Virus record (IMG/VR): IMGVR_UViG_3300035039_000184
DNA from: a virus
DNA: 56,665 nt
Direction: 5' to 3' (one strand)
In this document: piece after piece, positions 16,501 to 40,301 of the stretch
Layout: each line of letters begins with the position of its first letter
Position numbering within the stretch: position 1 is the stretch's first letter
The notes under the pieces: model-generated
The model's database searches: none
The model's input: only the letters and a program-made list of their open reading frames with translations
What the model was told of the DNA's origin: nothing
Translations under genes and position numbers: made by a program

Positions 16501-19500
16501 CATATATCACCTCGACATTCCCTGGACTCCCGGAGGATTCCGTCAGCGAAACGGCAGGGGCCTGCGGTTCGGAAACGAGAATGATTCCGTAAACATCCAC
16601 TATCTTCTCATGAGGGGGACCTTTGACGCCATAAGCATGGACGTTGTGATGCACAAGAAGGGATGGAACGAGGCCCTCTACGACAAGGAGGACGCCGACG
16701 TAATTCCCACTGCCGAGGAAATGGCAGGAGGGGCTATTCCTCCAAGGGAGCAGCTTCTTATCGAGCTTGAGACAGACCCGATAAAGAAACAGCAGCTTAT
16801 ACTGAGCTTCGACTACAAGAGGATGCAGGGAGAGCTCGGAGAGTACAATCAGGCTGCCTACCGAATAAGGAACCGTATCAGCACCGCACGAGAGGCGATA
16901 AAGGCCAACAGGCTGAGGCTCCAGGAGCGAGAACAGAAGCTGAGGGAGTCCAGTCCCAACGAGAAGATAAAGGACGAGAAGAAGCGTAAGGAACAGCACG
17001 AGAAGAGCAAGGCTTTTCTCAGAAAGGGTATAGAGACGTCCAAGAGGAAGATTCAGGAGATCGAGGACAAAATAACAACTCTCGAAAAGACCCTGGATGA
17101 GCTTGGAGAAAAGGCGAGAGACGCGAACGAGAGAATAAGCAGGTTCGAGGAAAGCTACCTCGACGAGGAGAAGAACTTCAGGAGAGACGTAATCGAAAGG
17201 CTTGCGGCAACAGAGGACAACCTCGACAACTCTCCGGCTCCGGACGAGAATTCCGGGACGGACACTGCCGAAGAGTTAGACCCTGACGAGGAGGTAACAC
17301 GGAGGATCAACGAAGCCTACGAGGAGAAAACTCCACCTGCCGGAGCCTCTGTCAAGTTTCTCAGGCCGGACGCTCTCATAAAGGCCCTGGACAGCAGAAA
17401 AAAGAACCAGGGCGTCAACGACTTCTTTGTCAAAAAAGACAAGAAGAAAAAGGACAGCGAGAGTGATCCCCGGACCTTCGAATTCACCGACAAGGAGATG
17501 GAGAAGGCCCACAAGGCGTACTCAAGGGGCATCGACAAGGAGAGTACGTGGAGCAAACTGCTTGAAGCCTTTATGGACATGAAGAACCGATCCACAAGGA
17601 CATTCCGGCACCTTCCGGGCGGAGCTCCCTTTGCCGTGGCAAGACATGTGCTGCTGCAGCTCAAGAGGACTATTCCTTCGGCACAGATGGACGCTGAAGA
17701 GAAGATAAGCGCCATTCTGACCAAGGAGACATCCGAGGGGATACAGCTCTACGATCGCACTGACCTGGACCTCTTCACGAGAAAGGTATATCTCGAGGAT
17801 TTTGCGAGAGACGCCAGAGACGGACTTTCACTTCCGGAAGGATACACTGAAGAGAACGTCAACGTGGAGCTCCAGAGGTTAAACGAGCACCTCAGGGAGA
17901 ACGCGCCCTGGATCCTCGACAGCTACCGACTGAGAACGGAGATGTGGAGAAAGGCAAAGAAGGAGTACATACGACAGGCAGGCAGGGCCGGAACGGACAT
18001 GTCCAAGAAGTTCACCAAGGGAGACTCCTATTTCCGTCATCAGGTCCTTGCTCACATGATGGACCAGGGAAGGTCCATATACGGGACCGGCAACAAGCTC
18101 AAGTCACCGGTTACGAGGGGTTTCCTGAAGGAAAGAAAGGGCTCTGAGCTTCCCATAAATCTCAACTACGCCCAGGCGGAATTCGAGGTTCTTGCTCAGA
18201 CCCTTGCGGATACCCATGTATGGGAGACAATCGCGATCATCGACGAGAACTACAGCATAACCGACAGGCTCAAGAAGATGGCTGTCGAGATGAACAACAA
18301 CAACTTCAAGGGGCTTATGGAGGAGCTCGTAAGGATAGAGCAGGGAGTCAAGACGGTGGACGAGGACGTCAGACACGAGGCCCAGAAGAGGATCAACAAG
18401 CTTTCCCAGAAGCAGGCCATAGCTCTCTCCCGGCTCAGCGAACTTGCAGCAATGGGAGAGCTGCCGACAGGCCCCAAGGGACAGTTCTCCCGGATCGTGC
18501 AGGAACTCGGCGATTACTACATGCTGAAAAAGGAGAACAAGAAGGACGACGTAGATGTAGGCAAGGTCAAGTTCAGTCACAAGGAGCTCATGAAGTACCT
18601 GTCCTGGCTCTCGAAACAGGAGGGAGACGGACAGGAGACCATTCTTTCCAGGACCTTCTTCAAGGGCGTGGCCGAGAAGAAGAAGGCTATAAAGGCCACC
18701 CTGAAGGCAGGAGATATCAAGGAGGTAAACTGGAAGGACCTTGTGCCAGACGACTACACCATATATCAGCCGAGGGAGGGTTCCGTCTTCTACAAGGCAT
18801 ACACCATACCGGAGCAGATGGCTGAGAGCATAGCCTCAGGTCTGCTCACAGGGCTGGACCTCACTCCCAACCAGGTCAAGGCCGTTCTCGCAAGAGGACC
18901 GAGGCACAAGGAGATGTGCATACCGACTCCACTTGCCGCGACCCTGGAGGAACTTAACCCCATGGGCTCAAGGAAGGAAGGGCCCTTTTCCGAGCTCTAC
19001 CATACTGGCATAAGGACCCTGAAGAAGTTCTGGCTATACGGACCTACAAGGTGGGTAAAGTACGCCTTCAGAAACCTTACCGGCGACTCAGAGGCCGTGG
19101 TTCTCGGCAGACAGTGGGACACTCTCAATCCGAAGCACCTCAAGAGGGCTACATGGGAGCTCTACCAGGCTGTTATGGCCCATCGAAAGCCGTCCAAGGA
19201 GTTCAAGGACTGGGCCCAGATGGGCGGATTCATGACCTTCGACAGGATCCAGGAACTTGGGGAACTCAAGGCACTTGAGAGGCTGCAACACCTTGAGGTC
19301 CCGGACGAGAGAGCCCTTTCGAAGATCAAGGACAAGACCTGGGACCGCTACTGGAGGGCCATCGACAAGGCGGAAGGAATAAGGGAGGGAGTTCTCCGTT
19401 ACGCCAGCTATCTGTCCTATCTCGAACAGATGGAGAACAACGAGAACGGAGAGCCGAACAACTTCGGAGCATCCAACCGAGATGAGATCATGGCCCTGCC

Positions 19501-20608
19501 CGACAAAAAATGGAGGGCCTTCCGGCTGTCAAATACCCTTTTAGGCGGATATGACGAGCTTACGGAGACCGGAGAATGGATGAGAAACAACATCTGGCCC
19601 TTCTGGAGCTTCCAGGAGATAAACCTGAAGAGGTATTTCTGGACCTTCAAGAACGCCTACATCGACGGCAGGACCGCAGGCAAGGCAGGAGAAGCCGTAA
19701 TGGGCTCCGCGATAAAGAGCTCTCCCTTCATAGCCATGAGGATAGGGACCTTCGCGATAAGGGCAAGCCTCTGGTGGGCGGCGATGCAAGCCTTCAACCG
19801 CTGGAGATGGCCCGAGGAGGAAGAGAACCTGCCGGAGCACGTTAAGAACAGACCTCACCTGATCGTGGGCAAGAACGACGCAGGAGAGGTGAAGGTGATG
19901 ACCAGGCTCGGGCTTCTGCCGGATCTCCTGGAATGGTTCGGAGACGAAACTCCTCCGAGATATGCCCGTGAATGGCTCAACGGCAACATGACCATTAAGG
20001 ACATTGGCGAGGAGATGGCCTTCGGAGTCATAAACAAGACCGTATCCGGGACTTTCCCCTTCATGAAGTTCTTTTACGAGATGTCCAGCGGAAGGTCCAC
20101 CTTTCCTGACGTGAGAAGACAGAGGCAGATACGGGATAAGTGGGAGTATCTCTACGACTGGGTTGGCCTCGGAGACTTCTACCGAGTGGCCACGGACCTC
20201 CCCGACAAGGGATGGACGGACCTTGCGGAGAGAGCTCTTTCCAACAAGTATGATCCTATGGAAAGTTCCTATTGGGACACCGTTTCCAGGGTATACGAGT
20301 GGAAGGAGGATGTCCTCGGACAGAAGGGGCAAGGCTACTATGAATCTCCGAAGTCCCAGGCCCTGTACTATTACAAGAAGTCCATAAGGTACGGAGACAA
20401 GGAAGCCGCAAAGAAATATCTTCTGGATTACTTCAGGGCAGGGGGAACAGCGAAGGGATACGAGCAGTCAATGAGGTGGCTTAACCCCCTTGCTGGAATC
20501 GCAAAGAAGTATTGGCCTGTCTTCTACAACTCCCTGGACGAGGGGGAGAAGAAGGCTTATAAGAGGGCAATGGCCTACTATCAGCAGATGCTGAACGTGG
20601 GCCCATGA
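7526..20608 (+). CDS. giant (4,360 aa) polyvalent virion-module protein with N6-adenine methyltransferase and SNF2/DEAH helicase modules (DarB-like)
   Basis: A single uninterrupted ORF of 13,083 nt with SD agaggagag upstream. It has N-terminal hydrophobic helices (aa ~250-300), MTase motifs I and IV, and helicase motifs I-VI (see sub-features). A terminator follows. Confidence 0.85.
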   Translation: MDYLDEIIRKYERGSNVSAPSSSFERKDRERRESGDIIDEVIDGYETDSASGGSRFNWDRPDVPEEMDRTLNDVMSGYPEFPYPSGIDPTSGDTDEKERRLPYGTVLDKDVLAADAADMLISKSGNVSPISGLPVDEKEPLFGETGKKIEKAFGDKGMQTFSGILGSAGAFARNVERLANPENERIEAPVNPGVLGTDGQLLKGIGDRDPYEKKNTIFKAAKATADFLEEGNEQIQKNLLQGEDPTFWDKVFNGIGSSAFFLVPGALAATGIATAAKFSPSVAKWLGAGVGGVMEGFADAGTTYKQVLDDGGDFQDANAAGSLAFWMNVPLDVITDKLGFFGDNKATKSLIAKSLSVFVKNPALKNTMSNVAGGMAGRGLNEMFQEGAQNPIQETLTEKALEKSGKGTLTWADAVKAMPEISERVPESIYNEGLPAFVSAAIFGLPTHMMQMDQEQRVEEEKSAREKTVQEQRTKGIMDEAFESVTGIPSGTEVRPIVAKRDEDISSPSAGDAVGTYLEGEKAKTIDAAIDKVAGTQQEADVARSERWAGTVDAVNAVNKYLDEMERQQQEQDKKENEPVQNARKDLPQDMQDNLNVNDLEGQVLKRYNKDMDFLQDLQRRREELGEQGYQDLLKTALNNPKVYSDFRNRQKPVQKEEPVNQDTARAEEIVTPEIEGENVQEVEKPSEPESIKKGEVGQKLGSGEVVLTSTGRKTTPFPKVDMSTNRKAANTVKRVDRWLIQNAINEAEQRGDEFNLLQFRGSLDNPSQADKDSAAYYLFDEEFIQKPDPKILKDMTKEQPSKSTDDIKPGDTVYRKDNGQALEVVNADDPSLLTVKHPKTGTQFQMGKGTVELAPEGQNLAPESIPEPEPTNTPDKGDTGRTEPDIQAEGQKRTIQDLQSLTFDTIEMGHWDKETEGVGKNKGIKYRTAKYAAIDRDGKERIFQVKVSSNGKTQVKPLGRTDSQKDADDQSEWSKVPEDVQRLVNLHWPDLNLSQKATIGKIAAGLPVNEMTANAVLGGSARNKMLELFPNIKTLEDGKRALQEYVRLKREEKSSDIEAEGPGFTGLVGEKTPRALESLKQLLDDPNAVHLKGRSLKYVEEDGKGYYEDEEGTRMPDWTPIPGNPGYSARQYVRDNTLEPAKAVQEVMINENGAIARRVYRDGEQEAYGGFEAEDNLKNFMAGKPFEAFFDFFNQKPDQIQAPAEEAPEAAQPELTDYQRQREENSKAADEVRTLQTKGQNSVPGVRIEAAEEAGRMRGLLESGEITQEEWDSYVQDLKDSGKVEADESESSPAEKETLTYSHEDITRKTYSEGDLVRFRKSMDKSPRKIVEIDKSGKVRLEGSDVLRDTAEIVKVSEEGQSEQKPAKKQKKSPAKKLRGDFSKIPEKYASKIDTGENMDEDWARKQAFMDDAANYLRSLGKDLGWEPYRGKNGKGSIVNKNPSGPATKGSVSATFFVPNRDEGVYITIDADGSNISGVKSAPYGTHIMWRSTTRKDPFGGGTNRFENWDITTDALSSTIESELDSVIARNDGKAQSQKSDTIVNKGEGVIPNEPERTVNGDRERTEQESQRGGQELPDGGDTEGGSAVAAGGREQPVLEDSGQRADEDVRGAEPPARDGVRETELSDETVGMEGQPATEDTGEELPWNRGNGLVPTSARDDADATGPSLVSDNYDLRNKEPVLLTKGERRRINDQARELLNKKEPLTEDEKDILRQYTGEGGLSSGSVEALNQHYTDYQTIRAIYGALERSGFYFEKALEPAVGSGNFIGNAPRGVDWTTVDIDSTNHQIASKLYPEGNHYLLSYEQFKKSGFDLVISNVPFLQERGAGGLKVRPDIQTLHDFYFVHSLDRVKDNGIVAFITSKGTMDKKNSSVRKEIVEKADVLGAFRLPGGHFEKNAHTSVITDIIFLQKRPEGAVPSSEQKAINDSFVKATETGDGIVLNNYYHDRMESNFLGEVEVGKDKARFGKITYTINGQADLSRIDIGPYRPYKIQKKEKAAPESVDVDEIPRDSKDFQKWASENDILTRQNITRTGTDRDGNSFEIKERDPGFSENIIIESDAVYAVDKVIDFEDVSGSAKIYREVSYKERDRIKDLDWIRRDAASFQETSDPKYAESGKKLIESYRQIHKVHPKKDKKLRKIFKDAGEQTLFAELSSFFDEDFNPAPVLDIQTRYSDSGRAEVTDDSPLSIRAFANEDNKGIVDISKAEHLSMDELGDLLHSGYSLVSMGEEGAVVQNDVLYYSGNIYSKIESAEKIKKDIELGRVDDGHAIGEKLDEQIRSLEEIKPSPKTVDDINFKGNENWLLPIIKKYGIWDIDSSYDRKSGKIQYEATNARGFPDSVYSNYLNNNVLIKRDFDQRTQMQEPISSYLSRMREAEEHVTEVVETIKERIKSDQQAAEEIEYAYNSKFRAYVKPNYSRAQYLIQDVLNEIEAESVNPKEAGQPVKLRKNQIEWIIQAVYEGKGINAHDVGGGKTFASIALARVLKKRGIAHKPLFVVPAKTINKWERDIKTLFPKARVLNLGQLSKNKRTEQLFELANNNFDYVVISHEGFKAIKLPLDTEMKYFDDVVNEHIDDPDMKGSQAARNMEKIEKYRTVLKEAERDSRLTFDKLGIDAIIADEAHAFKNIGIRGELNKFGLGAAFGFSNRQKNRKDPKTGKIMYGENGKPLKEDSVSLMSSKSYDFRFKSNWIIENNNNKNVFLLTATPTPNKPMEIYTMLRHLGKDIFDEYGLGRDIDFSNNFFHLGTVQKPDDPGQTKNVLSAIINALELRGILNRYVDKISIEDMPWIKIPEAKEYRQFLNMSEGYRLIAEDLAERQSRAGSGRKGAGEDNIIAIYSGGRAASVDPRLYGGEHANVEVDVRSYDPGDDKIQWTIESVAEVAKKNRKAGQLIFLDKVGWEQIENEKLAEDMHSEIKSSLVDMGFKEKEIAIINGKYVTNPKTGREVASGDKNQRKQDIADMYNEGKVKVVIGSTDSMGEGMDLQVKTTDIYHLDIPWTPGGFRQRNGRGLRFGNENDSVNIHYLLMRGTFDAISMDVVMHKKGWNEALYDKEDADVIPTAEEMAGGAIPPREQLLIELETDPIKKQQLILSFDYKRMQGELGEYNQAAYRIRNRISTAREAIKANRLRLQEREQKLRESSPNEKIKDEKKRKEQHEKSKAFLRKGIETSKRKIQEIEDKITTLEKTLDELGEKARDANERISRFEESYLDEEKNFRRDVIERLAATEDNLDNSPAPDENSGTDTAEELDPDEEVTRRINEAYEEKTPPAGASVKFLRPDALIKALDSRKKNQGVNDFFVKKDKKKKDSESDPRTFEFTDKEMEKAHKAYSRGIDKESTWSKLLEAFMDMKNRSTRTFRHLPGGAPFAVARHVLLQLKRTIPSAQMDAEEKISAILTKETSEGIQLYDRTDLDLFTRKVYLEDFARDARDGLSLPEGYTEENVNVELQRLNEHLRENAPWILDSYRLRTEMWRKAKKEYIRQAGRAGTDMSKKFTKGDSYFRHQVLAHMMDQGRSIYGTGNKLKSPVTRGFLKERKGSELPINLNYAQAEFEVLAQTLADTHVWETIAIIDENYSITDRLKKMAVEMNNNNFKGLMEELVRIEQGVKTVDEDVRHEAQKRINKLSQKQAIALSRLSELAAMGELPTGPKGQFSRIVQELGDYYMLKKENKKDDVDVGKVKFSHKELMKYLSWLSKQEGDGQETILSRTFFKGVAEKKKAIKATLKAGDIKEVNWKDLVPDDYTIYQPREGSVFYKAYTIPEQMAESIASGLLTGLDLTPNQVKAVLARGPRHKEMCIPTPLAATLEELNPMGSRKEGPFSELYHTGIRTLKKFWLYGPTRWVKYAFRNLTGDSEAVVLGRQWDTLNPKHLKRATWELYQAVMAHRKPSKEFKDWAQMGGFMTFDRIQELGELKALERLQHLEVPDERALSKIKDKTWDRYWRAIDKAEGIREGVLRYASYLSYLEQMENNENGEPNNFGASNRDEIMALPDKKWRAFRLSNTLLGGYDELTETGEWMRNNIWPFWSFQEINLKRYFWTFKNAYIDGRTAGKAGEAVMGSAIKSSPFIAMRIGTFAIRASLWWAAMQAFNRWRWPEEEENLPEHVKNRPHLIVGKNDAGEVKVMTRLGLLPDLLEWFGDETPPRYAREWLNGNMTIKDIGEEMAFGVINKTVSGTFPFMKFFYEMSSGRSTFPDVRRQRQIRDKWEYLYDWVGLGDFYRVATDLPDKGWTDLAERALSNKYDPMESSYWDTVSRVYEWKEDVLGQKGQGYYESPKSQALYYYKKSIRYGDKEAAKKYLLDYFRAGGTAKGYEQSMRWLNPLAGIAKKYWPVFYNSLDEGEKKAYKRAMAYYQQMLNVGP
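12600..13300 (+). other. N6-adenine DNA methyltransferase module of the giant protein
   Basis: AdoMet motif LEPAVGSGNF (12806-12838) and catalytic motif ISNVPF (NVPF at 12985-12996), a (D/N)PP(Y/F)-type variant. Confidence 0.7.
14870..16650 (+). other. SNF2-family helicase module of the giant protein
   Basis: HDVGGGKTF (motif I, ~14945), IIADEAHAFKN (DEAH, 15392-15403), LLTATPTPN (motif III), STDSMGEGMDLQ (motif V), FRQRNGRGLRFGN (motif VI, ~16544). Confidence 0.8.
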
Positions 20609-23251: not shown

Positions 23252-23516
23252 GACTTTTCCCGAAATCGAGGACGCAAAGGAGACATTTATGGACAAGATC
23301 TTTCCTCTCATGGAGAAAAGGTTTTGCTCGAAATGTCCTTATGCACGTATCAACCGTGCCCACTGGGACGATTATTTCGGAGGAAGTCCGGAGGAGTTTG
23401 AATGTCTGAGAAAAACGGAACCGGGAGACCGGGGCTGCTACTTCGAGGACAACGCAAGAGAAATAAGAAGCAAGCTTGAGGAGGTTGGAGAGTTATGCAG
23501 GAAACTGATGTATTAA
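23241..23516 (+). CDS. hypothetical Cys-rich small protein
   Basis: SD gggaggagg is upstream of the ATG at 23241 (an internal start of ORF 23184..23516). Contains CSKC...C...C, a possible zinc site. Confidence 0.5.
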   Translation: MVIETFPEIEDAKETFMDKIFPLMEKRFCSKCPYARINRAHWDDYFGGSPEEFECLRKTEPGDRGCYFEDNAREIRSKLEEVGELCRKLMY

Positions 23517-24787
23517 TCCAGAGCCCTTCCGAAAAGCGTGAAGCCTATCCCTACAACGAGAAATATTTCTACACGGGCAAACGTTTCGGAGACGCACTGG
23601 TATTGATGGAGACAGGCAGAATGGGTCACGAGGAATGGGAGGCCATAAGAACGGATCTTCCCTGTATCGGGGGATCGGACGCAGCTACGGTGCTCGGATA
23701 CAACAAGTACAAGTCCCCCATGATGCTATGGAGTGAACTTTCGGGAATTACCAAAAGACCACGAAACGATGATCCCTCTACATACTGGTATCCGTTCATT
23801 TCAGAACCGGCCTACTGGGGGCATGTCCACGAACCCCAGATAAGAAACACCATCAAAGGGATCCTCGAACCTCGGGGGTGCAGGATTGAGCAGAGAAACG
23901 CAATCCTTACACATCCGGAGCACAAGTGGATGATATGCGACCTTGACGGAGTTATCTACGCTCCGGCGGAGGGAGTGAAAGTGACGGACTCCACGGGAAC
24001 GGATTTTGTCCTCGAAGGCAGGGGAGTGCTGGAGTGCAAGTCGGCCTCTGAATATCTCAAGAACGAATGGACAGGCGACGATCTTCCGATGGCCTACTAC
24101 ATTCAGGTTCAGCACAATCTCGCAGTAACGGGGTTTCAGTGGGCCATCGTTCCGGCTCTTGTGGGAGGAAACCGTTTCAACTGGAAGGTTATCCCCAGAA
24201 GCCAGGAGTACATCGACGCAATAGTCGGAGTCGAGAAGAAGTTCTGGCACGAGCATTACCTCGCTTCCGAGCCTCCGGAGCTCGACGGATCGGCGGCCAC
24301 GGAGAAGTGGCTGAAGGAACAGTATCCAGAGGACCTTACCGATGATGTTGTAGTGGCCAACGAGGAGCTCGACGAGCTTGCCAGGAAATATACGGAAGCG
24401 AAGGCAAGGCTCGAAGAGCTCAAGAAAGAAGAGGCCGAATACAAGAACAAGATCATCCAGCAGATAGCAGAGGCTCCCGGAGCAAAGGGATCCAGATACA
24501 AATGGACCCTGAGCTACAAGAAGGGCAAGGATTCCGTCAAAACTACCACGGACTATGAGGCCGTAGGGAAAGAGATAGAGGACGGAGTTCCCGAGGAGAT
24601 CATCGAGAAACACACGAGGGTCACCACCTACTGGGAGGACGTAGTGAAGGAAATTCTGGACTCGGAAGAGGACGGCCCATTGAAGGATATCGTTTCGGAG
24701 ATAGTTGACAAGTATTCCGAAAGCAAGGTCACGAGAAAGGGATCCAGGACATTTCGCTTTAACTGGGAAGATGAGGAGGTGGCATAA
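23495..24787 (+). CDS. YqaJ-like (lambda Exo-type, PD-(D/E)xK) recombination exonuclease with C-terminal coiled-coil extension
   Basis: IGGSDAATVLGYNKYKSPMMLWSELSG and DLDG...GVLECKSA match the YqaJ viral recombinase motifs. It is adjacent to recT. Confidence 0.8.
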   Translation: MQETDVLIQSPSEKREAYPYNEKYFYTGKRFGDALVLMETGRMGHEEWEAIRTDLPCIGGSDAATVLGYNKYKSPMMLWSELSGITKRPRNDDPSTYWYPFISEPAYWGHVHEPQIRNTIKGILEPRGCRIEQRNAILTHPEHKWMICDLDGVIYAPAEGVKVTDSTGTDFVLEGRGVLECKSASEYLKNEWTGDDLPMAYYIQVQHNLAVTGFQWAIVPALVGGNRFNWKVIPRSQEYIDAIVGVEKKFWHEHYLASEPPELDGSAATEKWLKEQYPEDLTDDVVVANEELDELARKYTEAKARLEELKKEEAEYKNKIIQQIAEAPGAKGSRYKWTLSYKKGKDSVKTTTDYEAVGKEIEDGVPEEIIEKHTRVTTYWEDVVKEILDSEEDGPLKDIVSEIVDKYSESKVTRKGSRTFRFNWEDEEVA

Positions 24788-25729
24788 ATGGCAGCCACTA
24801 ACAGAAACGGGAGCAAGGAAGAGCTTGAGAAACTGAAGGAAAAGGCCGGAACCGAGCTTGAGGCAACATCCAAGTCCAAAGAAAACGCCAAGAACTCTCC
24901 TCTGAAGAGTTTTAAGGCCACAGTGGACCGGATGAAGGGCGAGATCGAGGCGGCTCTGCCTCAACATCTGAAGGCAAACTCGGACAGATACGCCCGGAAT
25001 ACCGTAACTCTGTTCTCCCAGAATCCGTCATTGCAGCTTTGCCGGCCAGTGACGATCCTGGGAGCTATGATGACAGCGACAGCATTAGGGCTGGACCTTT
25101 CCCCTCAGTTGGGACAAGCATACATCATCCCTTACCAGAACAGCAAGTATATGAACGGCAAGTGGGAGAAAGTCTGGGAGGCTCAATTCCAGTTTGGATA
25201 CAAGGGCCTTGTGGCTCTCGCTCATCGCAGTGACAAGATAGCCTACATCGCAGCTCATCCGGTCTACGAGAAGGACGTTTTCGACTACTCCTACGGAACG
25301 AAGGAATATCGGGTCCTGAAGCACAAACCGAGCCCTCTTCCTAAGAAAGAGGACCTCGAAAACAAGGACGACAACCACAGGGGAGATATTAAGTTCTACT
25401 ACGCAATCGCAGAGCTGACAAACGGCGGAGAGAATTTTCTGGTCTGGCCACGAGTGGACGTTATAGCTCATGCCAAAAAGTTCTCCAAAAGTTACTACAA
25501 GTGGGACAAGTCTGGCAACCGGACGGTCAATTCCAACTCCCCATGGGTAAAGGATGAGATAAGCATGGCCCAGAAAACCCTTCTTATCCAGCTTTGCAGA
25601 TATCTTCCGGTCTCCGTTGAGCTCGGCAAGGCCATAGCCCAGGATGAAACAACGAGGGATGATCTGAGTCTGCTTGAGAGGGAAAAGGACATCATCGACA
25701 TTACGCCGTCAGATTCACCGGCGGAGTAA
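24788..25729 (+). CDS. recT: RecT-family single-strand annealing protein
   Basis: 313-aa ORF immediately after the exonuclease gene. RecT-like core (QFQFGYKGLVALAHRSDKI..., WVKDEISMAQKTLL). Confidence 0.75.
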   Translation: MAATNRNGSKEELEKLKEKAGTELEATSKSKENAKNSPLKSFKATVDRMKGEIEAALPQHLKANSDRYARNTVTLFSQNPSLQLCRPVTILGAMMTATALGLDLSPQLGQAYIIPYQNSKYMNGKWEKVWEAQFQFGYKGLVALAHRSDKIAYIAAHPVYEKDVFDYSYGTKEYRVLKHKPSPLPKKEDLENKDDNHRGDIKFYYAIAELTNGGENFLVWPRVDVIAHAKKFSKSYYKWDKSGNRTVNSNSPWVKDEISMAQKTLLIQLCRYLPVSVELGKAIAQDETTRDDLSLLEREKDIIDITPSDSPAE

Positions 25730-25736
25730 ATAAACA

Positions 25737-25768
25737 GGGGAGGGCGGATCTTCCGCCTTCCCCTTATT
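25737..25768 (+). terminator. strong hairpin, terminator or attenuator between recT and the methyltransferase gene
   Basis: 12-bp stem ggggagggcgga/tccgccttcccc (one G-U pair), followed by ttattgt (weak U tract). Confidence 0.45.
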
Positions 25769-25779
25769 GTGGAGGGAAT

Positions 25780-26667
25780 ATGGGGAAACTGAAAATGCTT
25801 GACCTCTTCAGCGGCATAGGCGGGGTCAGCCTTGGAGCGGAAATGACAGGTTGTATTGAGACAGTGGGGTTCTGTGAGATAGAGCCGTTCTGCCAGAGGG
25901 TACTTAAAAAACATTGGCCTGACGTGCCGATTTACACAGACATAAAGGAGTTGACGGCAGAAGATGTGGGATCAGTTGACATTGTTGCAGGTGGTGCCCC
26001 TTGTCAACCATACTCTGTCAACGGAAAAAGACAGGGAGGAAAAGACGAAAGACACCTATGGCCTGAAATGTTCCGATTGGTCAGAGATATCAGACCCAGT
26101 TGGATGGTTTTTGAGAATGTCCCTGGAATCCTGTCTGGAACAATCGACGAGATCCTCAGTGACTTGGAAAGCGAAGGGTACAAAAGCTGGACATATGTAT
26201 ACGGAGCTAATCTATTTGGAGCAGAGCACAAAAGAAACAGGGTCTTCGTTATTGCAGAAAAGAGGGCAATATGGCCCGGAGAATATATATGGGAAGAAGG
26301 ATGGGAAGAACCATACTGCCCCGTTTGCCGAGTTGAATTTGGAAGTAACGAGTGTTTCCACGACGGAATCACAAGTTGGTTTGATGAAAAAATATCCGAT
26401 GATCCCGACACTGAGAGCCAGCGAATGGAAAGGATGTGGCCCGAAGGGGTCAAAATCCCACAACCACTGGTTAAAACACTTTTACCTCTCCGCAATAGTA
26501 ACGGACAGTGGGAAACTGAACCCGACTTTCGCAGAACGGATGATGGGATTCCCGGAAGGGTGGACAAACATAAATCAGCAAGATTGAAAGCCCTCGGCAA
26601 CGCAGTAGTACCGCAGCAGATATACCCTATATTCTGGGCGATCAGTCAAATGGAGGTGCAGAAATGA
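25780..26667 (+). CDS. DNA (cytosine-5) methyltransferase
   Basis: Motif I LFSGIGG, motif IV GGAPCQPYS, motif VI ENVPG, motif VIII KRNRVFVIA, motif X LGNAVVPQ. Confidence 0.85.
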   Translation: MGKLKMLDLFSGIGGVSLGAEMTGCIETVGFCEIEPFCQRVLKKHWPDVPIYTDIKELTAEDVGSVDIVAGGAPCQPYSVNGKRQGGKDERHLWPEMFRLVRDIRPSWMVFENVPGILSGTIDEILSDLESEGYKSWTYVYGANLFGAEHKRNRVFVIAEKRAIWPGEYIWEEGWEEPYCPVCRVEFGSNECFHDGITSWFDEKISDDPDTESQRMERMWPEGVKIPQPLVKTLLPLRNSNGQWETEPDFRRTDDGIPGRVDKHKSARLKALGNAVVPQQIYPIFWAISQMEVQK

Positions 26668-30914: not shown

Positions 30915-31141
30915 TGACAAATATAGAACAATTAAACGATACGATTGAAAATTTGCGAATAAAGATAGATAAATTGGAAGACGAAAACAAAAAACTACGA
31001 GAAGAGTTACGGACTACTGAATCACACTTACGCTCTGCTAAATTCCGGATAACTGAGGAATTAGAGCCAAGGATTAAAGAAGGTAAAAAAGCGTATGACA
31101 CGTGGGTATCTTCTCCAAATCGCATGGGAGGCGATGAGTAA
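30914..31141 (+). CDS. hypothetical coiled-coil small protein
   Basis: TAATG overlap at both ends. Heptad-like IENLRIKIDKLEDENKKLREEL. Confidence 0.5.
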   Translation: MTNIEQLNDTIENLRIKIDKLEDENKKLREELRTTESHLRSAKFRITEELEPRIKEGKKAYDTWVSSPNRMGGDE

Positions 31142-31791
31142 TGGAAAAATATCACAAGATACAGACAGTGTTTAAGCGCGATCCTGAGACAAAATTTAAG
31201 ACTATTCTTGAAGGTGAATATTCACTTCCTGAATTTGAATTTTTGAAAGACGCTACTTGGGTATGTACAGAAAAGGTAGACGGTACAAATATTCGTGCAA
31301 TCTGGGACGGAGAGAAAATTACCTTCAAGGGTAAAACAGACAACGCACAGATACCACCCTTTCTATTAGAAGCCCTGCAAAATGAGGTTTTTGATTTATT
31401 CACGGTTGAGTTGATTAGAAGCATTTTTAACGACACACCTGTATGTTTCTACGGAGAGGGATATGGAGCAAAAATACAGAAGGGTGGCGGTAATTATCGC
31501 AAAGATAATTCCTTTGTGTTGTTTGATATTAAGTGTAACAACATTTTCTTTGCCAGGGAAAAGGCCGAAGACATAGCCGATAGTCTTGGGATAGAAATAG
31601 TTCCCATTGTCGAGGAATGCAATTTATTTGAGGCTGTCGAAATTGCAAGAGAAGGATTCCAGTCATGGTGGGGGAAATTCGATGCAGAGGGGCTTGTCAT
31701 GAAACCCAAATGTGAACTATCAGACAGGAATGGGAACAGGATAATCACGAAGATTAAGCATAAGGATTTTAGAGATAAGGGGGAGCAGTGA
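31141..31791 (+). CDS. ATP-dependent RNA-ligase-like nucleotidyltransferase
   Basis: Motif I KVDGTN (31273-31290), motif III FVLFDI, motif IV EGLVMKP, motif V ITKIKHK. The N-terminus KYHKIQTVFKRDPET is typical of small bacterial/phage RNA ligase family proteins. Confidence 0.7.
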   Translation: MEKYHKIQTVFKRDPETKFKTILEGEYSLPEFEFLKDATWVCTEKVDGTNIRAIWDGEKITFKGKTDNAQIPPFLLEALQNEVFDLFTVELIRSIFNDTPVCFYGEGYGAKIQKGGGNYRKDNSFVLFDIKCNNIFFAREKAEDIADSLGIEIVPIVEECNLFEAVEIAREGFQSWWGKFDAEGLVMKPKCELSDRNGNRIITKIKHKDFRDKGEQ

Positions 31792-37250: not shown

Positions 37251-37269
37251 TATTTGTTTAGCTGCCTCA

Positions 37270-37294
37270 TAAAAAAAGAGGGCCGAAGCCCTCT
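37270..37294 (-). terminator. rho-independent terminator (- strand)
   Basis: On the - strand: agagggc ttcg gccctct followed by ttttttt. It overlaps the stop codon of the HTH gene. Confidence 0.65.
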
Positions 37295-37436
37295 ATATCA
37301 ACTTGTCGATCTCTTTTTGCTCAACCACCCACATAAACCCGATCTTCTGCCCTTTGATCCGTCCCTGTCGGCACAACCGACGGAGGTAGGATTCCGACAC
37401 TCCGACGAGTTGTGAGGCTTGTTTGAGGGTTAGCAT
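37293..37436 (-). CDS. 47-aa excisionase/MerR-type HTH (HTH_17-like) protein, copy 1
   Basis: MLTLKQASQLVGVSESYLRRLCRQGRIKGQKIGFMWVVEQKEIDKLI. It overlaps the upstream gene end by 7 nt. It is below the ORF-track cut-off and ~95% identical at DNA level to copy 2. Confidence 0.7.
   Translation of the reverse strand: MLTLKQASQLVGVSESYLRRLCRQGRIKGQKIGFMWVVEQKEIDKLI
37297..37436. repeat. direct repeat copy 1 (~140 nt, pairs with 38701..38839)
   Basis: Aligned by eye there are about 7 mismatches over ~140 nt. The copies are ~1.4 kb apart in direct orientation. Confidence 0.8.
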
Positions 37437-37792
37437 GGTTGTTCCATCTTTTTGTCAATCCCATCAATAATCTCTCGATGGGAAGGTCCATCTTTCCACA
37501 AAAGCCACTGTTTATACAATTTCTTTACAGCTTGCGGGAAGGTTTTTGCTTCTCCGGAATGGGCACGTACTGGCCCGCCCATAAGAGTCACGCTCCACCA
37601 TCCACCGCAGTATCTGGCTTCCAGAGTGTGGTGTAAATGCCCGCTGTTTGTCATCTCTTCTATCATTTCTTCTATCCACTCCATTTTTGCAACACTCCCT
37701 ATAGGATTATCCGCTCTTAGTAAAAGCCCTCTCGCCACGTCAAGGCGGCGGATTTTGAGAGGGTGCCGGGGCAAGCCCGGCAGGGTTAGCAT
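37430..37792 (-). CDS. paralogue family A member 3 (C-terminal part), N-terminus derived from an HTH-gene start
   Basis: TAATG overlap with the upstream gene. It begins ATGCTAACCCT, identical to both HTH gene starts. The C-terminus WSVTLMGG..AVKKLYKQWLLWKDG parallels 30137..30508. Confidence 0.55.
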   Translation of the reverse strand: MLTLPGLPRHPLKIRRLDVARGLLLRADNPIGSVAKMEWIEEMIEEMTNSGHLHHTLEARYCGGWWSVTLMGGPVRAHSGEAKTFPQAVKKLYKQWLLWKDGPSHREIIDGIDKKMEQPC

Positions 37793-38664
37793 TATAATCT
37801 CACTTCCTTAAATACGGGTGGTTTTTCTGATAACAGGTCTAAACAATCTTTTTCAAAATCTGTTAATTTTCGGGCTTTCCCTGTAGGATACACATTCCAA
37901 TAATCACCATCTCTAAGTCCGCCCGGTTCTACTCCTTCAGCCACTGCATACGCAGGGTTGATAACGTATCCAACATCAAAAATATTTCTGCAATGGAATT
38001 TGAGTTCTTCATCTGTGTTTTTATTCTTGCATTTCACTATAGCTATGTAATCCGGCCCCTCTCCGCCTTTGATAGTTTTTCTTTCAAGGATCTCTGTTTC
38101 TATGTGCTGATATTTTTCGTTGATTCTCTTTTCTTCTTCTTGCTTTTTTTCTTTGACTATTCTCTTTCTTTCTTCACGTGCCTTTTCTTTCGCAATCTCT
38201 TTATCAAACTGCTCTTTCACATGTTCTTCTGTTATCCCGTCTATTTCATAATATTTTGCGATCTGCTTTATTTCATCTTCAAGTTTTCTATCATCGATGG
38301 TTACTTCATGCGATTCCCAGCCATGAACAAAAAAGGTATGATAATGTGAAAAATGTTCTTCTTGGAGTGCTCCGTATCCTTGTTTTACTTCTTTGATCCA
38401 GTCCTGCATATCCTCTGTGATCTTTATAGATGCCGTGCCATCGGGAGATTCAGAGCATGAAAATTTGATACCTTCAAGAAAGTTTCCGTCTTTGTCTCTA
38501 AGAGTCCTTAGTTCTCCGTCTTTAATTTCTATTTTTTTACTCCCAGTATCTGCCCAGCCAGTGAAAACAAGATTAGTGCGGAGGAATTCGTCTTTAAAGT
38601 TCGCTGTGATCTCAACTTCTGCATTTTTAGATGTTTTCCCTTTGTAAGTTTTTATTGCCTTCAT
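37792..38664 (-). CDS. hypothetical protein with central K/E-rich coiled coil
   Basis: 290-aa ORF with SD aagggggagaaa upstream. No family recognised. Confidence 0.55.
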   Translation of the reverse strand: MKAIKTYKGKTSKNAEVEITANFKDEFLRTNLVFTGWADTGSKKIEIKDGELRTLRDKDGNFLEGIKFSCSESPDGTASIKITEDMQDWIKEVKQGYGALQEEHFSHYHTFFVHGWESHEVTIDDRKLEDEIKQIAKYYEIDGITEEHVKEQFDKEIAKEKAREERKRIVKEKKQEEEKRINEKYQHIETEILERKTIKGGEGPDYIAIVKCKNKNTDEELKFHCRNIFDVGYVINPAYAVAEGVEPGGLRDGDYWNVYPTGKARKLTDFEKDCLDLLSEKPPVFKEVRL

Positions 38665-38692
38665 TTTTTTCTCCCCCTTGATTTTTAAATTG

Positions 38693-38839
38693 TTACTTAA
38701 TCAACTTGTCGATCTCTTTTTGCTCAACCACCCACATAAACCCGATCTTCTGCCCTTTGATCCGTCCCTGGCGGCACAACCGCCGGAGGTAGGATTCCGA
38801 CACTCCGACGATTGTTGAGGCTTGCTTGAGGGTTAGCAT
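38693..38839 (-). CDS. 48-aa excisionase/MerR-type HTH (HTH_17-like) protein, copy 2
   Basis: MLTLKQASTIVGVSESYLRRLCRQGRIKGQKIGFMWVVEQKEIDKLIK. ATG lies 1 nt after the upstream stop. The longer ORF-track start at 38881 is rejected. Confidence 0.7.
   Translation of the reverse strand: MLTLKQASTIVGVSESYLRRLCRQGRIKGQKIGFMWVVEQKEIDKLIK
38701..38839. repeat. direct repeat copy 2 (pairs with 37297..37436)
   Basis: See copy 1. Confidence 0.8.
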
Positions 38840-38840
38840 G

Positions 38841-39413
38841 TTAGTTGTCCCCTTTTCCCACATCATTCTTTGCCCAGTCAACTATTTCATCAATCGGGGC
38901 AGTTGCAACCCATTCGATATGCTCATCCCAGTTTGACCAGTCGTAGAAAATAATGTCTTCGTATTTTTGTAGTTCAGGAATATTGTTTACTCGCTCGTGT
39001 GCTTCATGGTCCCAATGTTCTCTGACAAAATCACCAAAATCATCAAAATCATCAACATCGCTTACATCAGCGTCAGGGAAAGACGTGTAGTCTATCTGGA
39101 AGTCGGTAAACTTTACGAGAAGAAATAAATTAGTTTCGTTAATCTCAATATTCTGGCTGCTCAAAAGTTCTCTTGCTGTTGTCATTTTCGTTTCCCCCTT
39201 ATAATTTTTCTTCCACTCGCTAATTTCATTGAGTGGTGCGGTTGCTACCCATTCAAGACGATCACGGAAGTCATTGTTATTCTCAACATTTACATCTGCG
39301 TCTGGGAACTGTTGGTAATCTATATCGGAGTCTGTGTATTTAGTGAGTAGGAATAGATTAGTCTCATTAACTTCCAAGTTCTGGCTGCTCAAAAATTCTC
39401 TTGCTGTTGTCAT
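38841..39413 (-). CDS. strongly acidic protein made of two tandem homologous modules (DNA-mimic / anti-defence candidate)
   Basis: ATG at 39413 with SD aaggggg. Module 1 runs 39186-39413 and module 2 runs 38841-39185. Both start MTTARE(F/L)LSSQN(L/I)E(V/I)NETNLFLL and contain FPDADV and EWVATAP. The internal Met (39185) has its own aaggggg SD. The protein is very D/E-rich. Confidence 0.65.
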   Translation of the reverse strand: MTTAREFLSSQNLEVNETNLFLLTKYTDSDIDYQQFPDADVNVENNNDFRDRLEWVATAPLNEISEWKKNYKGETKMTTARELLSSQNIEINETNLFLLVKFTDFQIDYTSFPDADVSDVDDFDDFGDFVREHWDHEAHERVNNIPELQKYEDIIFYDWSNWDEHIEWVATAPIDEIVDWAKNDVGKGDN

Positions 39414-39437
39414 TTTGCTTACCCCCTTATGTATTTG

Positions 39438-39485
39438 TGTTCCTCGTTCGGAACAATTATAGTATAGTACCACGCTCGGAACTTG
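39438..39485 (-). promoter_or_regulatory. promoter region with repeated TCGGAAC/GTTCCGA operator-like motifs
   Basis: A - strand TATAAT (39461..39456) is flanked by GTTCCGA at 39454..39448 and 39482..39476. The proximal copy is part of the inverted repeat GTTCC-N6-GGAAC (39439-39454). Confidence 0.4.
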
Positions 39486-39599
39486 TATATAGGTCTTAAG
39501 ACCCATAAAAACAACAAAAACATGAGTCTCAGGTCTCATCTTTGATCTGAAAGGCAATAATTAGACATTCCTGGGTATACCATTCTCGGGAAAAAAGAG

Positions 39600-39660
39600 G
39601 TAAAATACTACAATAGGGAGGAGGGAGGGGCAATATCTATCATCTTACCCACTCCCTCCG
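39600..39660 (-). terminator. hairpin terminator between the two - strand units
   Basis: Stem ggagggag(ggg)/(ccc)actccctcc (39620-39630 / 39648-39659). On the - strand a T-rich tract tattgtagtatttta follows. Confidence 0.4.
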
Positions 39661-39708
39661 GAAAAACTTCATATCTGAGCTATGCTACAGAACGGTAGTT
39701 GAAAATCC

Positions 39709-39906
39709 TTAAATCCTTTCCCACCTTCCTGGATAGCTGCGATAATCGTATTTCTTCGCTTTAGATTCCCTGAGCTCCCTACGAAAATTCCCCAGGAACC
39801 TCAAAAACAGTGATCCAAGAAACATCCCGAGAAAACCTACAGATCCTGCATATAGGAAAACAAGAAACAAAAACCTCCAGAATTCAACTTCAGTCATCGT
39901 GATCAT
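39709..39906 (-). CDS. 65-aa membrane protein
   Basis: Hydrophobic WRFLFLVFLYAGSVGFLGMFLGSLFLRFL followed by a basic tail. ATGA-type overlap with the upstream gene. Confidence 0.5.
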   Translation of the reverse strand: MITMTEVEFWRFLFLVFLYAGSVGFLGMFLGSLFLRFLGNFRRELRESKAKKYDYRSYPGRWERI

Positions 39907-40124
39907 ACCAAAATCCTCTCCTTTTCAAGGAAAAATAAATAGCTTTCTTCGAGAAAACTTCCGTTGATGTTTCTGCTGTTGATCAGGTTGACAACTTCCT
40001 CCCTGTCTCTCTGATCAATAACATTTCCGGCATGATCGGAACATCGTAAAACGGATTTTCCATTCAGGTTTGTGCTAATAGTAATGTCTACAGAGTTGCA
40101 GTTTTTTGTGAGGTAAATAGTCAT
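39903..40124 (-). CDS. 73-aa hypothetical protein
   Basis: ATG at 40124 is preceded by ggaagggagag. The ORF-track GTG start at 40157 has no SD. Confidence 0.45.
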   Translation of the reverse strand: MTIYLTKNCNSVDITISTNLNGKSVLRCSDHAGNVIDQRDREEVVNLINSRNINGSFLEESYLFFLEKERILV

Positions 40125-40301
40125 TGATATTTCTCTCCCTTCCTGGTGTTTTTTCACTTCGATAAAATTTGATTCTTAGCTCCGTGATGGTTGATAGCTA
40201 CTGGAAAGATATTGCTGTCACTTTAGTTGAGAAAAGTTTATAAATACCTCCCTTTGAGAAATTTACTTCAGAAATTTGCCTATTAATCAACTTATATAGC
40301 A

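Follow-up and report, generated by a model that had tools for sequence, protein, structure and literature searches.

A putative self-regulated, exchangeable gene cassette with an HDV-like RNA element in a tailed-phage genome

The window analysed here, the whole 56,665-nucleotide (56.7-kb) stretch of IMG/VR virus record IMGVR_UViG_3300035039_000184, is a tailed-phage genome in which nearly every gene lies on the + strand. Between 37.2 and 40.6 kb, an island of - strand genes with a GC content of 35-43%, against 50-55% in its flanks, sits between the gene for a DUF1492/ArpU-like (late) activator and the gene for the small terminase. The variable portion of this island (37261-39503, - strand) holds the subject of this study: a gene cassette, oriented opposite to the flanking late genes and equipped with its own promoter and terminator, that encodes unannotated cargo proteins, two small helix-turn-helix (HTH) proteins and an RNA element resembling the ribozyme of hepatitis delta virus (HDV).

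Organization and exchange of the cassette

The left border of the exchangeable cassette is a perfect 12-bp palindrome, GGTCTTAAGACC (39492..39503), which is unique in the window. The first gene downstream of the promoter, a fused tandem duplicate (38841..39413, - strand), encodes an acidic protein of 190 amino acids (aa). As the initial annotation had proposed, a gene for a 48-aa HTH_17 protein (HTH1; 38693..38839, -) begins 1 nt past the acidic-gene stop, and both its coordinates and its Pfam match bear this out. There follow a gene for a 290-aa protein with a conserved ~100-aa C-terminal domain (CRNIFDxGYVINP...EPGG; 37792..38664, -), a gene for an 84-aa protein (MEWIEEM...; 37430..37684, -) with a GGGAG Shine-Dalgarno (SD) sequence of its own, and a second HTH_17 gene, encoding 47 aa (HTH2; 37293..37436, -). 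HTH2 is the last gene before an intrinsic terminator, AGAGGGCUUCGGCCCUCU followed by a U run (37268..37294, -; stem 37294-37277), which forms the right end of the cassette. The annotation had also called a second HTH copy, about 95% identical, ahead of a terminator; the two copies are indeed 95% identical over 147 nt and 96% identical as proteins.

In phages with the same backbone, the same slot has five different contents (the window, L009, L001/L002, L013-L015 and L016). The L009 allele consists of a window-type promoter, one 224-aa cargo gene, an HTH gene whose product is identical to HTH2, and a terminator in common with the window. The L001/L002 allele has another promoter and genes of 230, 168 and 144 aa without an HTH gene, and the L013-L015 allele places genes of 76, 290, 166 and 145 aa behind the L001-type promoter; its 290-aa gene is identical to that of the window, although the cassette is a different one, and L014 has no HTH gene. 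All slot alleles share two small upstream genes and a spacer of ~200 nt that reaches up to the palindrome, and the conserved backbone starts again from ~37261. The same promoter-cargo-HTH unit also adjoins the small-terminase gene, divergently transcribed, in phages of another type whose terminase is different (L004 and L008). In L004 it comprises the promoter, an 85-aa gene, a 224-aa gene, an HTH gene and an analogous terminator; in L008, the sequence up to the contig end holds the promoter and a gene for a 292-aa protein homologous to the 290-aa one. Similarity to every other cassette type, including the one in the different backbone, begins at the palindrome. From these comparisons, the moving unit is the palindrome, the promoter, the cargo, a gene for a 47-50-aa HTH_17 protein and the terminator.

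The same comparisons show that the window version is a composite of two cassettes. Its first half contains the promoter, the acidic-protein gene and HTH1; its second half contains the 290-aa gene, a remnant of an HTH gene start, the hairpin and ribozyme-like element described below, the 84-aa gene, HTH2 and the terminator. The remnant is the third copy of ATGCTAACCCT (37782..37792, -), an 11-mer corresponding to the first four codons of the HTH gene, which occurs exactly three times in the window against 0.02 expected and here overlaps the stop of the 290-aa gene. This copy had been taken to mark an old recombination joint, a proposal that L008 strengthens: this locus appears to keep the 292-aa gene with ATGCTAACCCTT directly after it at the contig end, which fits an ancestral order of 290-aa gene followed by HTH gene. 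The same joint is found in L014: downstream of the identical 290-aa gene come the same ~90 nt, comprising ATGCTAACCCT, the hairpin and the element up to GAGCGGATAA, and then a different gene. Since these ~90 nt are kept as intergenic sequence in L014, they represent a conserved non-coding 3' flank of the 290-aa gene. This gene, its 5' flank TAACAATTTAAAAATCAAGGGGGAG and the 3' hairpin and ribozyme-like element move together as one module. One further proposal, that the 120-aa open reading frame (ORF) 37430..37792 starts at the third 11-mer, did not hold: its first ~105 nt also occur in L014, there as conserved intergenic sequence before a different gene. The real gene start is most likely the Met at 37684, which would make the first ~105 nt of the ORF non-coding and the 84-aa gene its coding part.

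Recognizable genes elsewhere in the window include those for an endolysin, RecE/RecT, a DNA methyltransferase, a replication initiator, a DnaC-like loader, an RNA ligase, a Holliday-junction resolvase, the DUF1492/ArpU-like activator and the small and large terminases; the closest terminase relatives are found in phages of Firmicutes. Genes for a RecE-like exonuclease, a RecT-like annealing protein and the DNA methyltransferase lie consecutively at 23495-26667 (+). The RecE/RecT pair, together with the repeated HTH and SD sequences, provides a plausible route for the shuffling of cassettes through short homologies, and methyltransferases are a known route of self-protection against restriction. 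No clear lysogeny module was seen in the ORF list or in family scans. The structural region contains a single ORF of 4360 aa (7526-20608, +), unusually large for a 56.7-kb phage. By blastn, the region has no nucleotide similarity to isolated phages. The cassette promoter has no match in 185,579 species genomes; therefore, we make no host assignment.

Immediately upstream of the palindrome, a conserved unit (39709-40157, -, and 39505-39700) contains a 73/84-aa gene and a gene for a 65-aa membrane protein. It has a good promoter of its own (TTGACA-17-TATTTT, 40330-40302) and, at its 3' side, a long GGAGGGAG...CUCCCUCC hairpin followed by the conserved spacer of ~200 nt, and the unit with its hairpin and spacer is present in every slot allele.

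Operator-like sites and the HTH_17 proteins

The cassette promoter is of the sigma-70 type. Its -10 region, TATACTATAAT (39456..39466, -), in which TATACT and TATAAT hexamers overlap, is conserved in L004, L008 and L009. The initial annotation had described a TATAAT box flanked by two GTTCCGA motifs and an inverted repeat GTTCC-N6-GGAAC at the likely transcription start. The box (39461-39456) and both motifs (39482-39476 and 39454-39448) are present as claimed, but the 7-mer itself is neither rare, with 13 copies in the window against 6.9 expected (not significantly enriched), nor conserved, as its second copy reads GTTCCAA in relatives. The inverted repeat is a perfect one (39454-39439). Judging by the alignment of the four promoters (window, L004, L008 and L009), the conserved unit is a 16-bp site, GTTCC-N6-GGNAC, and not the 7-mer. 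This site occurs twice in the 56.7-kb window (0.37 expected), both times at the promoter. The first, O1 (GTTCC-GAGCGT-GGTAC; 39467..39482, -), fills the gap that separates a TATACA -35-like hexamer from the -10 region, and the second, O2 (GTTCC-GAACGA-GGAAC, a perfect 5-N6-5 inverted repeat; 39439..39454, -), begins one base past TATAAT and covers the expected transcription start.

Across the four cassettes, which are independent of one another, O1 reads GTTCC-N6-GG(T/C)AC and O2 reads GTTCC-N6-GGAAC, with arms that are invariant except for the one degenerate O1 position. The N6 spacers differ, being GAGCGT in the window, GACCTT in L004 and GCAATC in both L008 and L009 for O1, and GAACGA in the window, AAGGAA in L004, AAGAAA in L009 and AAGGGA in L008 for O2. 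Among 141 loci, pairs of such sites are found only upstream of promoter-cargo-HTH cassettes. The alleles without an HTH gene (L001 and L014) have no O1 or O2 sites and use a different promoter with TTGCCAT-N4-TTGCCAT direct repeats (L001 9930-9960; L014 498-520), which hints at a swap of regulator and operator. The last gene of these alleles (144/145 aa) has an N-terminus, MKITIRISERAAEKL, that by eye looks like a ribbon-helix-helix (RHH), an impression only, with no support in Pfam or the PDB.

Both HTH proteins exceed the gathering threshold of Pfam HTH_17 (PF12728; 40.4 bits for HTH1 and 40.6 for HTH2, against 27), with residues 1-47 aligned to the 51-position profile. In the four HTH copies compared, VGVSESYLRRLCRQG is invariant and variation falls at other positions, and we read this segment as the putative recognition helix. 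In the window, L004 and L009 alike, the HTH gene lies downstream of the cargo in one operon, the layout typical of anti-CRISPR-associated (Aca) regulators. The fact that the site arms are invariant while the spacers vary, coupled with the absence of the sites where the HTH gene is absent, supports a role of the HTH_17 protein as an Aca-like autorepressor of its own promoter. Such linkage of operators and HTH gene is the pattern that would be expected of an autoregulator and its operators, and it agrees with how Aca proteins have been described to work (PMC13551039, PMC9410906). The acr/aca-like architecture proposed earlier thus gains from the comparison, in which the promoter and the two sites travel with the HTH_17 gene into different backbones (L004, L008 and L009).

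In PHROG, the HTH proteins match excisionase families best (E 2e-7 to 6e-7) and a small-terminase family weakly. These matches would suit an excisionase (a recombination directionality factor) or a packaging accessory, whose recombination or pac-related sites would be the repeats; the cassette always adjoins the small-terminase gene, and the 12-bp palindrome, like the 147-nt HTH repeats, marks recombination joints. We consider this explanation highly improbable. An excisionase role had already been called unlikely for want of an integrase, and we likewise found none in the ORF list or among the early-region ORFs in family scans, although the scan was not exhaustive. Moreover, the sites straddle the -10 box in front of the very operon that encodes the HTH protein, and the sister phages L001 and L014 have the same terminase without the HTH gene or the sites; therefore, neither is needed for packaging.

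Autorepression could work as follows. The HTH_17 protein would bind the two 16-bp sites, probably with one subunit per half-site, the half-site centres lying 11 bp apart. With one site filling the -35/-10 spacer and the other covering the transcription start, enough protein would shut the promoter, as Aca proteins do. Some features sit uneasily with autorepression: the -35 element is a weak one, no dimerisation domain is obvious in a 47-aa HTH_17 protein, and relatives such as Xis are monomers that bind direct repeats. If the HTH_17 protein is an autorepressor, the Aca-like toolkit would gain a very small new type of regulator whose 16-bp operator is defined, and the protein would offer a guilt-by-association handle on several unannotated phage families, such as the ~46-aa domain described below.

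An HDV-like RNA element between the 290-aa and 84-aa genes

A stable hairpin (GCCGGG-CUUG(C)-CCCGGC; 37765..37781, -) lies downstream of the 290-aa gene and ends 1 nt before the predicted cleavage site (A37764/C37763) of a 55-nt candidate minimal, P4-less HDV-like ribozyme (37709..37763, -). The strands of this element are, in order, CCCUCUC (P1), AAA, AUCCGC (P2), C, GCC (P3), UUGACGU (L3), GGC, GAGAGGG (P1'), CU, UUUA, CUAAGA (J4/2) and GCGGAU (P2'). All three helices of the nested double pseudoknot are present, namely a 7-bp P1 and a 6-7-bp P2 that interleave, and a 3-bp P3 inside. L3 keeps U19, C23 and G24, and J4/2 begins with C in the form CNRA, in keeping with the published feature list (L3 U19/C23/G24 with a reverse wobble, J4/2 C-N-R-A and the catalytic C; PMC6326823). 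The layout also fits, piece by piece, the published segmentations of minimal drz ribozymes (Kienbeck et al., PMC10879173). With a relaxed descriptor, the element is the single match in the window, and none of 300 dinucleotide shuffles contained any match. The best match in Rfam is RF02682, below threshold (22.4 bits against a gathering score of 44), and because the P2 pseudoknot is invisible to this model, cmscan misplaces J4/2. Weak Rfam matches to MicX, nhaA-I and twister-sister were rejected as chance.

A family of similar elements exists in viral contigs. A scan with the P3/L3 core gave 105 unique occurrences. In 22 of these, a P1 of 7 bp and a P2 of 6-7 bp also form, the expectation from shuffled flanks being 0.005. 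Among the 19 unique elements there are 14 distinct P1 and 10 distinct P2 helices, and covariation is seen at 6 of the 7 P1 pairs. In a second scan with P3 unconstrained, GCC/GGC came up in 39 cases and ACC/GGU in 24, a compensatory change not required by the search, and 35 full matches had 20 distinct P1 and 17 distinct P2 helices. C1-G is present in 35 of the 35 family members passing P1 and P2, and CU follows P1' in every member; the J4/2 of relatives reads CCAA, CAGA or CUAA, and two members have a small GCA-GAAA-UGC hairpin at the exact place of P4. In many members, a hairpin ends 1-3 nt before the predicted cut. Members of this family, here termed C1-type elements, are found downstream of RAGATH-15 at a distance of 28-32 nt, upstream of GOLLD at ~300 nt and in loci that also hold twister-P5 (L024 1432-1811; L049; L080; L025 2381-3134; L084; L090; L125; L074; L126), a setting that suggests that they process large phage non-coding RNAs. 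At none of the 26 loci carrying the element is there a tRNA next to it, as would be the case for theta ribozymes, which cut within ~5 nt of a tRNA 3' end; the window element follows a protein gene. With Rfam 15, a typical family member has no match even at E <= 10, and in the 185,579 species genomes the core gives mostly chance matches in coding sequence, with two convincing copies, both in metagenome-assembled genomes.

Could the operator-like repeats and the pseudoknot be chance features of an AT-rich intergenic region? The 7-mer GTTCCGA, which alone is not significantly enriched, would allow it, but the conservation of the 16-bp sites in four cassettes with variable spacers, the shuffles without a single HDV-like match and the excess of P1 and P2 passes effectively refute this already.

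Several points weigh against a catalytic RNA. The descriptor was relaxed after the element had been seen, and the covariation counts for P1 and P2 are partly circular, as the sequences were selected for pairing. The element has C1-G at the cleavage site, where a G1-Y pair is expected, and in P1.1 the UG of L3 faces CU, giving one flipped G21-C36 pair and a U-U mismatch in place of C20-G37/C21-G36, an arrangement that does not vary in the family; either change could entail loss of catalysis. The element might accordingly be a structured but non-catalytic RNA, such as a ribozyme that has decayed, a stabiliser or insulator of the mRNA, or a pseudoknot that binds protein. Published descriptors fix both of the altered positions, P1.1 retains a single Watson-Crick pair, the Rfam score is low or, for typical members, absent altogether, and the window element does not appear in the searched parts of the published tables of theta and minimal drz ribozymes. 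On balance, we regard a non-catalytic RNA as rather unlikely. Neither C1-G nor the flipped G21-C36 varies among the 35 or more members, which have 20 different P1 and 17 different P2 helices between them; this argues for selection on a specific core and not for decay; the J4/2 cytosine and the U...CG motif of L3 are retained; and the family sits in ribozyme-rich neighbourhoods typical of self-cleavers.

Given these features, the element probably self-cleaves 5' of C37763 in the operon mRNA. It is tempting to go further, and we propose tentatively, at somewhat less than even odds, that C1-type elements are an active, previously unrecognised HDV-like subclass, in which C1-G35 and G21-C36, the two pairs beside the active site, are both inverted, and that phages employ them to set the 3' and 5' RNA ends of operon mRNAs and of large non-coding RNAs (GOLLD, RAGATH-15). 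Here, the element would act as an operon insulator between the cargo mRNA and that of the second regulator, and would be the first self-cleaving ribozyme inside an acr/aca-like operon. In the mechanism that we envisage, the transcript between the two genes folds into a P4-less HDV-like double pseudoknot and would be cut 5' of C37763. Ribozyme cleavage leaves a 2',3'-cyclic phosphate and a 5'-OH. The upstream mRNA (acidic-protein gene, HTH1 and 290-aa gene) would then end in the protective hairpin, and the downstream mRNA (84-aa gene and HTH2) would carry at its start a 5'-OH and a compact fold lying 10-15 nt ahead of the SD, so that the two halves would no longer be coupled in stability and translation. 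If C1-type elements cleave, the search rules for HDV-like ribozymes (G1, and CC/GG in P1.1) would be too narrow and would have missed a whole phage-borne subclass, and natural ribozyme processing would take place in an operon of a bacterial virus and beside GOLLD and RAGATH RNAs, whose maturation is unexplained.

The window also has an RNA ligase gene (31141-31791, +; Pfam PF09414 at 61 bits; phrog_548). RNA ligases are strongly enriched in phages with minimal HDV-like (theta) ribozymes (Kienbeck et al., PMC10879173), and the co-occurrence of ligase gene and ribozyme-like element may be meaningful in view of the two kinds of end that ribozyme cleavage leaves.

The cargo proteins and comparison with known systems

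The acidic protein (190 aa, 44 D/E, net charge -29, pI 4.1) was described in the initial annotation as two homologous modules, the second with its own SD and Met. This description proved accurate: module 1 (39413-39186) and module 2 (39185-38841) are 40% identical (E 7e-23), and module 2 has its own SD and ATG, with the internal Met at 39185. At the DNA level the repeat spans 141 nt at 77% identity, SD and ATG included. Each module consists of an N-domain (MTTAREFL...FPDA) and a C-domain (...EWVATAP..EI..W), and module 2 adds a (DDF)n acidic linker. Within this linker, three 9-nt tandem units (CAAAATCAT/C; 39026-39059) encode DDF-DDF-GDF, a small expandable repeat. A TAA stop lies in frame upstream of module 1 and the equivalent codon at the module junction is GAA; therefore, two adjacent paralogous genes were fused. 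The second module, of 114 aa, may still be made from its own SD.

A word-index search found two homologues of the acidic protein, and an exhaustive phmmer search found 291 representative clusters. Nearly all of these clusters match the ~46-aa C-terminal domain, with the consensus RV..PEL..Y.D.IFYDW....EH..WVATAP..EI.DWA; a second family is formed by the ~45-aa N-domain (MTAREFL...NE.NL..LT.Y...D..QFPDAE). The C-domain occurs alone (57-70 aa), behind RHH-like N-termini (often in proteins of ~100 aa) and behind other variable N-domains. The genomic context of one RHH-fused C-domain protein consists of short contigs and is uninformative. Stand-alone C-domain genes are found in small-gene clusters of phage contigs, frequently in the reverse orientation to adjoining blocks and in two cases near a terminase. 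Among C-domain relatives (P0016, P0113 and P0125), some have a basic tail, ...SALG.K.S..K..SS.ANG.KGGRPRK, and others have RHH or NikA-like N-termini; the ~46-aa WVATAP domain is thus joined repeatedly to nucleic-acid-binding modules. Pfam, PHROGs and NCBIfam contain neither domain family, the C-domain has no tblastn match in phages or plasmids, and a profile search of the PDB with the acidic-protein family returned nothing.

The AlphaFold2 (AF2) model of the acidic protein is all-helical (predicted local distance difference test score, pLDDT, 76.5; above 95 in the C-domain), with small helical domains separated by low-confidence acidic linkers. By Foldseek, it has no match at E <= 0.001 in the PDB or BFVD, Ocr and ArdA included. 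The suggestion of a DNA mimic, drawn from acidity only, is not supported; the model shows no similarity in fold to known mimics. The 290-aa protein has no family match in Pfam or PHROG, and its AF2 model (pLDDT 70.6) has no PDB match at E <= 0.001 and bears only a faint resemblance to the OB-fold. A 49%-identical homologue in L007 (34-2826) heads a replication block (SNF2 helicase, primase-like and DnaB-like genes), and the 290-aa family is therefore not confined to the terminase-proximal slot. The 84-aa protein has no family matches.

Sequence comparison establishes how the cassette is built, that the operator-like sites and the HTH gene are linked, that the window version is composite in origin and that the pseudoknot is conserved. 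Taken together with the putative autoregulation, they lead us to read the locus as a mobile, self-regulated accessory cassette in a hypervariable slot, with an HDV-like element and unannotated cargo, and we hold this to be somewhat probable. Counting against this reading, besides the reservations already given for the promoter, the HTH proteins and the RNA, are the scans of the cassette proteins with Pfam, PHROG, NCBIfam and PADLOC, in which only the HTH proteins match and the cargo does not (PADLOC giving one generic HTH match only), and the lack of fold similarity between the acidic protein and known DNA mimics.

The cargo proteins are built from phage-restricted small domains. They would act on the host, most likely as host-takeover or counter-defence factors, and the architecture makes a counter-defence role plausible. 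The stronger claim of a candidate anti-defence locus did not find support, in that the cargo has no Pfam, PHROG, NCBIfam or PADLOC match and no fold match in the PDB or BFVD. The cargo might instead have no counter-defence role, the cassette being a moron, a superinfection-exclusion system or a toxin-antitoxin-like module of use to a lysogen or in keeping out rival phages, with the HTH protein as its repressor or antitoxin-like regulator. The frequent position of the C-domain behind RHH N-termini in ~100-aa proteins is an antitoxin-like layout, the cassette has its own promoter and terminator opposite to the late genes, and a membrane-protein gene (65 aa) lies just upstream. In the ORF list and the non-exhaustive family scans we found no integrase or clear lysogeny module; there is no toxin-like domain, PADLOC returned only its generic HTH match, and stand-alone C-domain genes occur in small-gene clusters of phage contigs. 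This alternative is, in our estimation, quite unlikely.

Among known systems, acr-aca operons (in which Aca1-13 are HTH and Aca14 is RHH) offer the closest parallels in layout: small cargo genes precede the gene for a small DNA-binding protein, inverted repeats overlap the operon's own promoter and transcription start, and cargo is swapped between mobile elements as regulator and sites stay linked (PMC13551039, PMC9410906). The window cassette differs in that its regulator is an HTH_17 protein (excisionase/MerR-type) of 47-50 aa, a kind not named, as either excisionase or MerR-type, among the Aca families of a 2026 survey. It also differs in having no known anti-CRISPR (Acr) or other anti-defence protein among its cargo, a duplicated regulator gene and a ribozyme-like element inside the operon. 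With Ocr and ArdA, the acidic DNA-mimic anti-restriction proteins, the first product shares its strong acidity and its place as a phage accessory gene; unlike them, it has no sequence or fold similarity to any PDB entry, nor to any BFVD fold.

The RNA element has the order and lengths of P1, J1/2, P2, P3, L3 (U-NN-NCGU) and P1' of the drz-Mtgn and theta ribozymes of gut Caudoviricetes, as well as a P1.1 strand of 2 nt, a short linker rich in U and A where P4 would be, a CNRA J4/2 and P2'. Like them, it resides in phage genomes, in sense orientation and in non-coding spacers. It departs from them in C1-G instead of G1-U/C, in the flipped G21-C36 beside a U-U mismatch and in having no adjoining tRNA. 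With RF02682, the Rfam family of the HDV ribozyme of F. prausnitzii, it aligns in P1, P3 and L3 (CCU..ACGUGG..GAG), but that family has a 21-nt P4 region and G1. Finally, in common with phage morons and hypervariable slots, the cassette is a low-GC block with its own promoter and terminator, lies in the opposite orientation and differs in content between near-identical phages. In contrast to morons, the unit includes a cognate, if putative, pair of regulator and operator, and it recurs beside the small terminase in two lineages.

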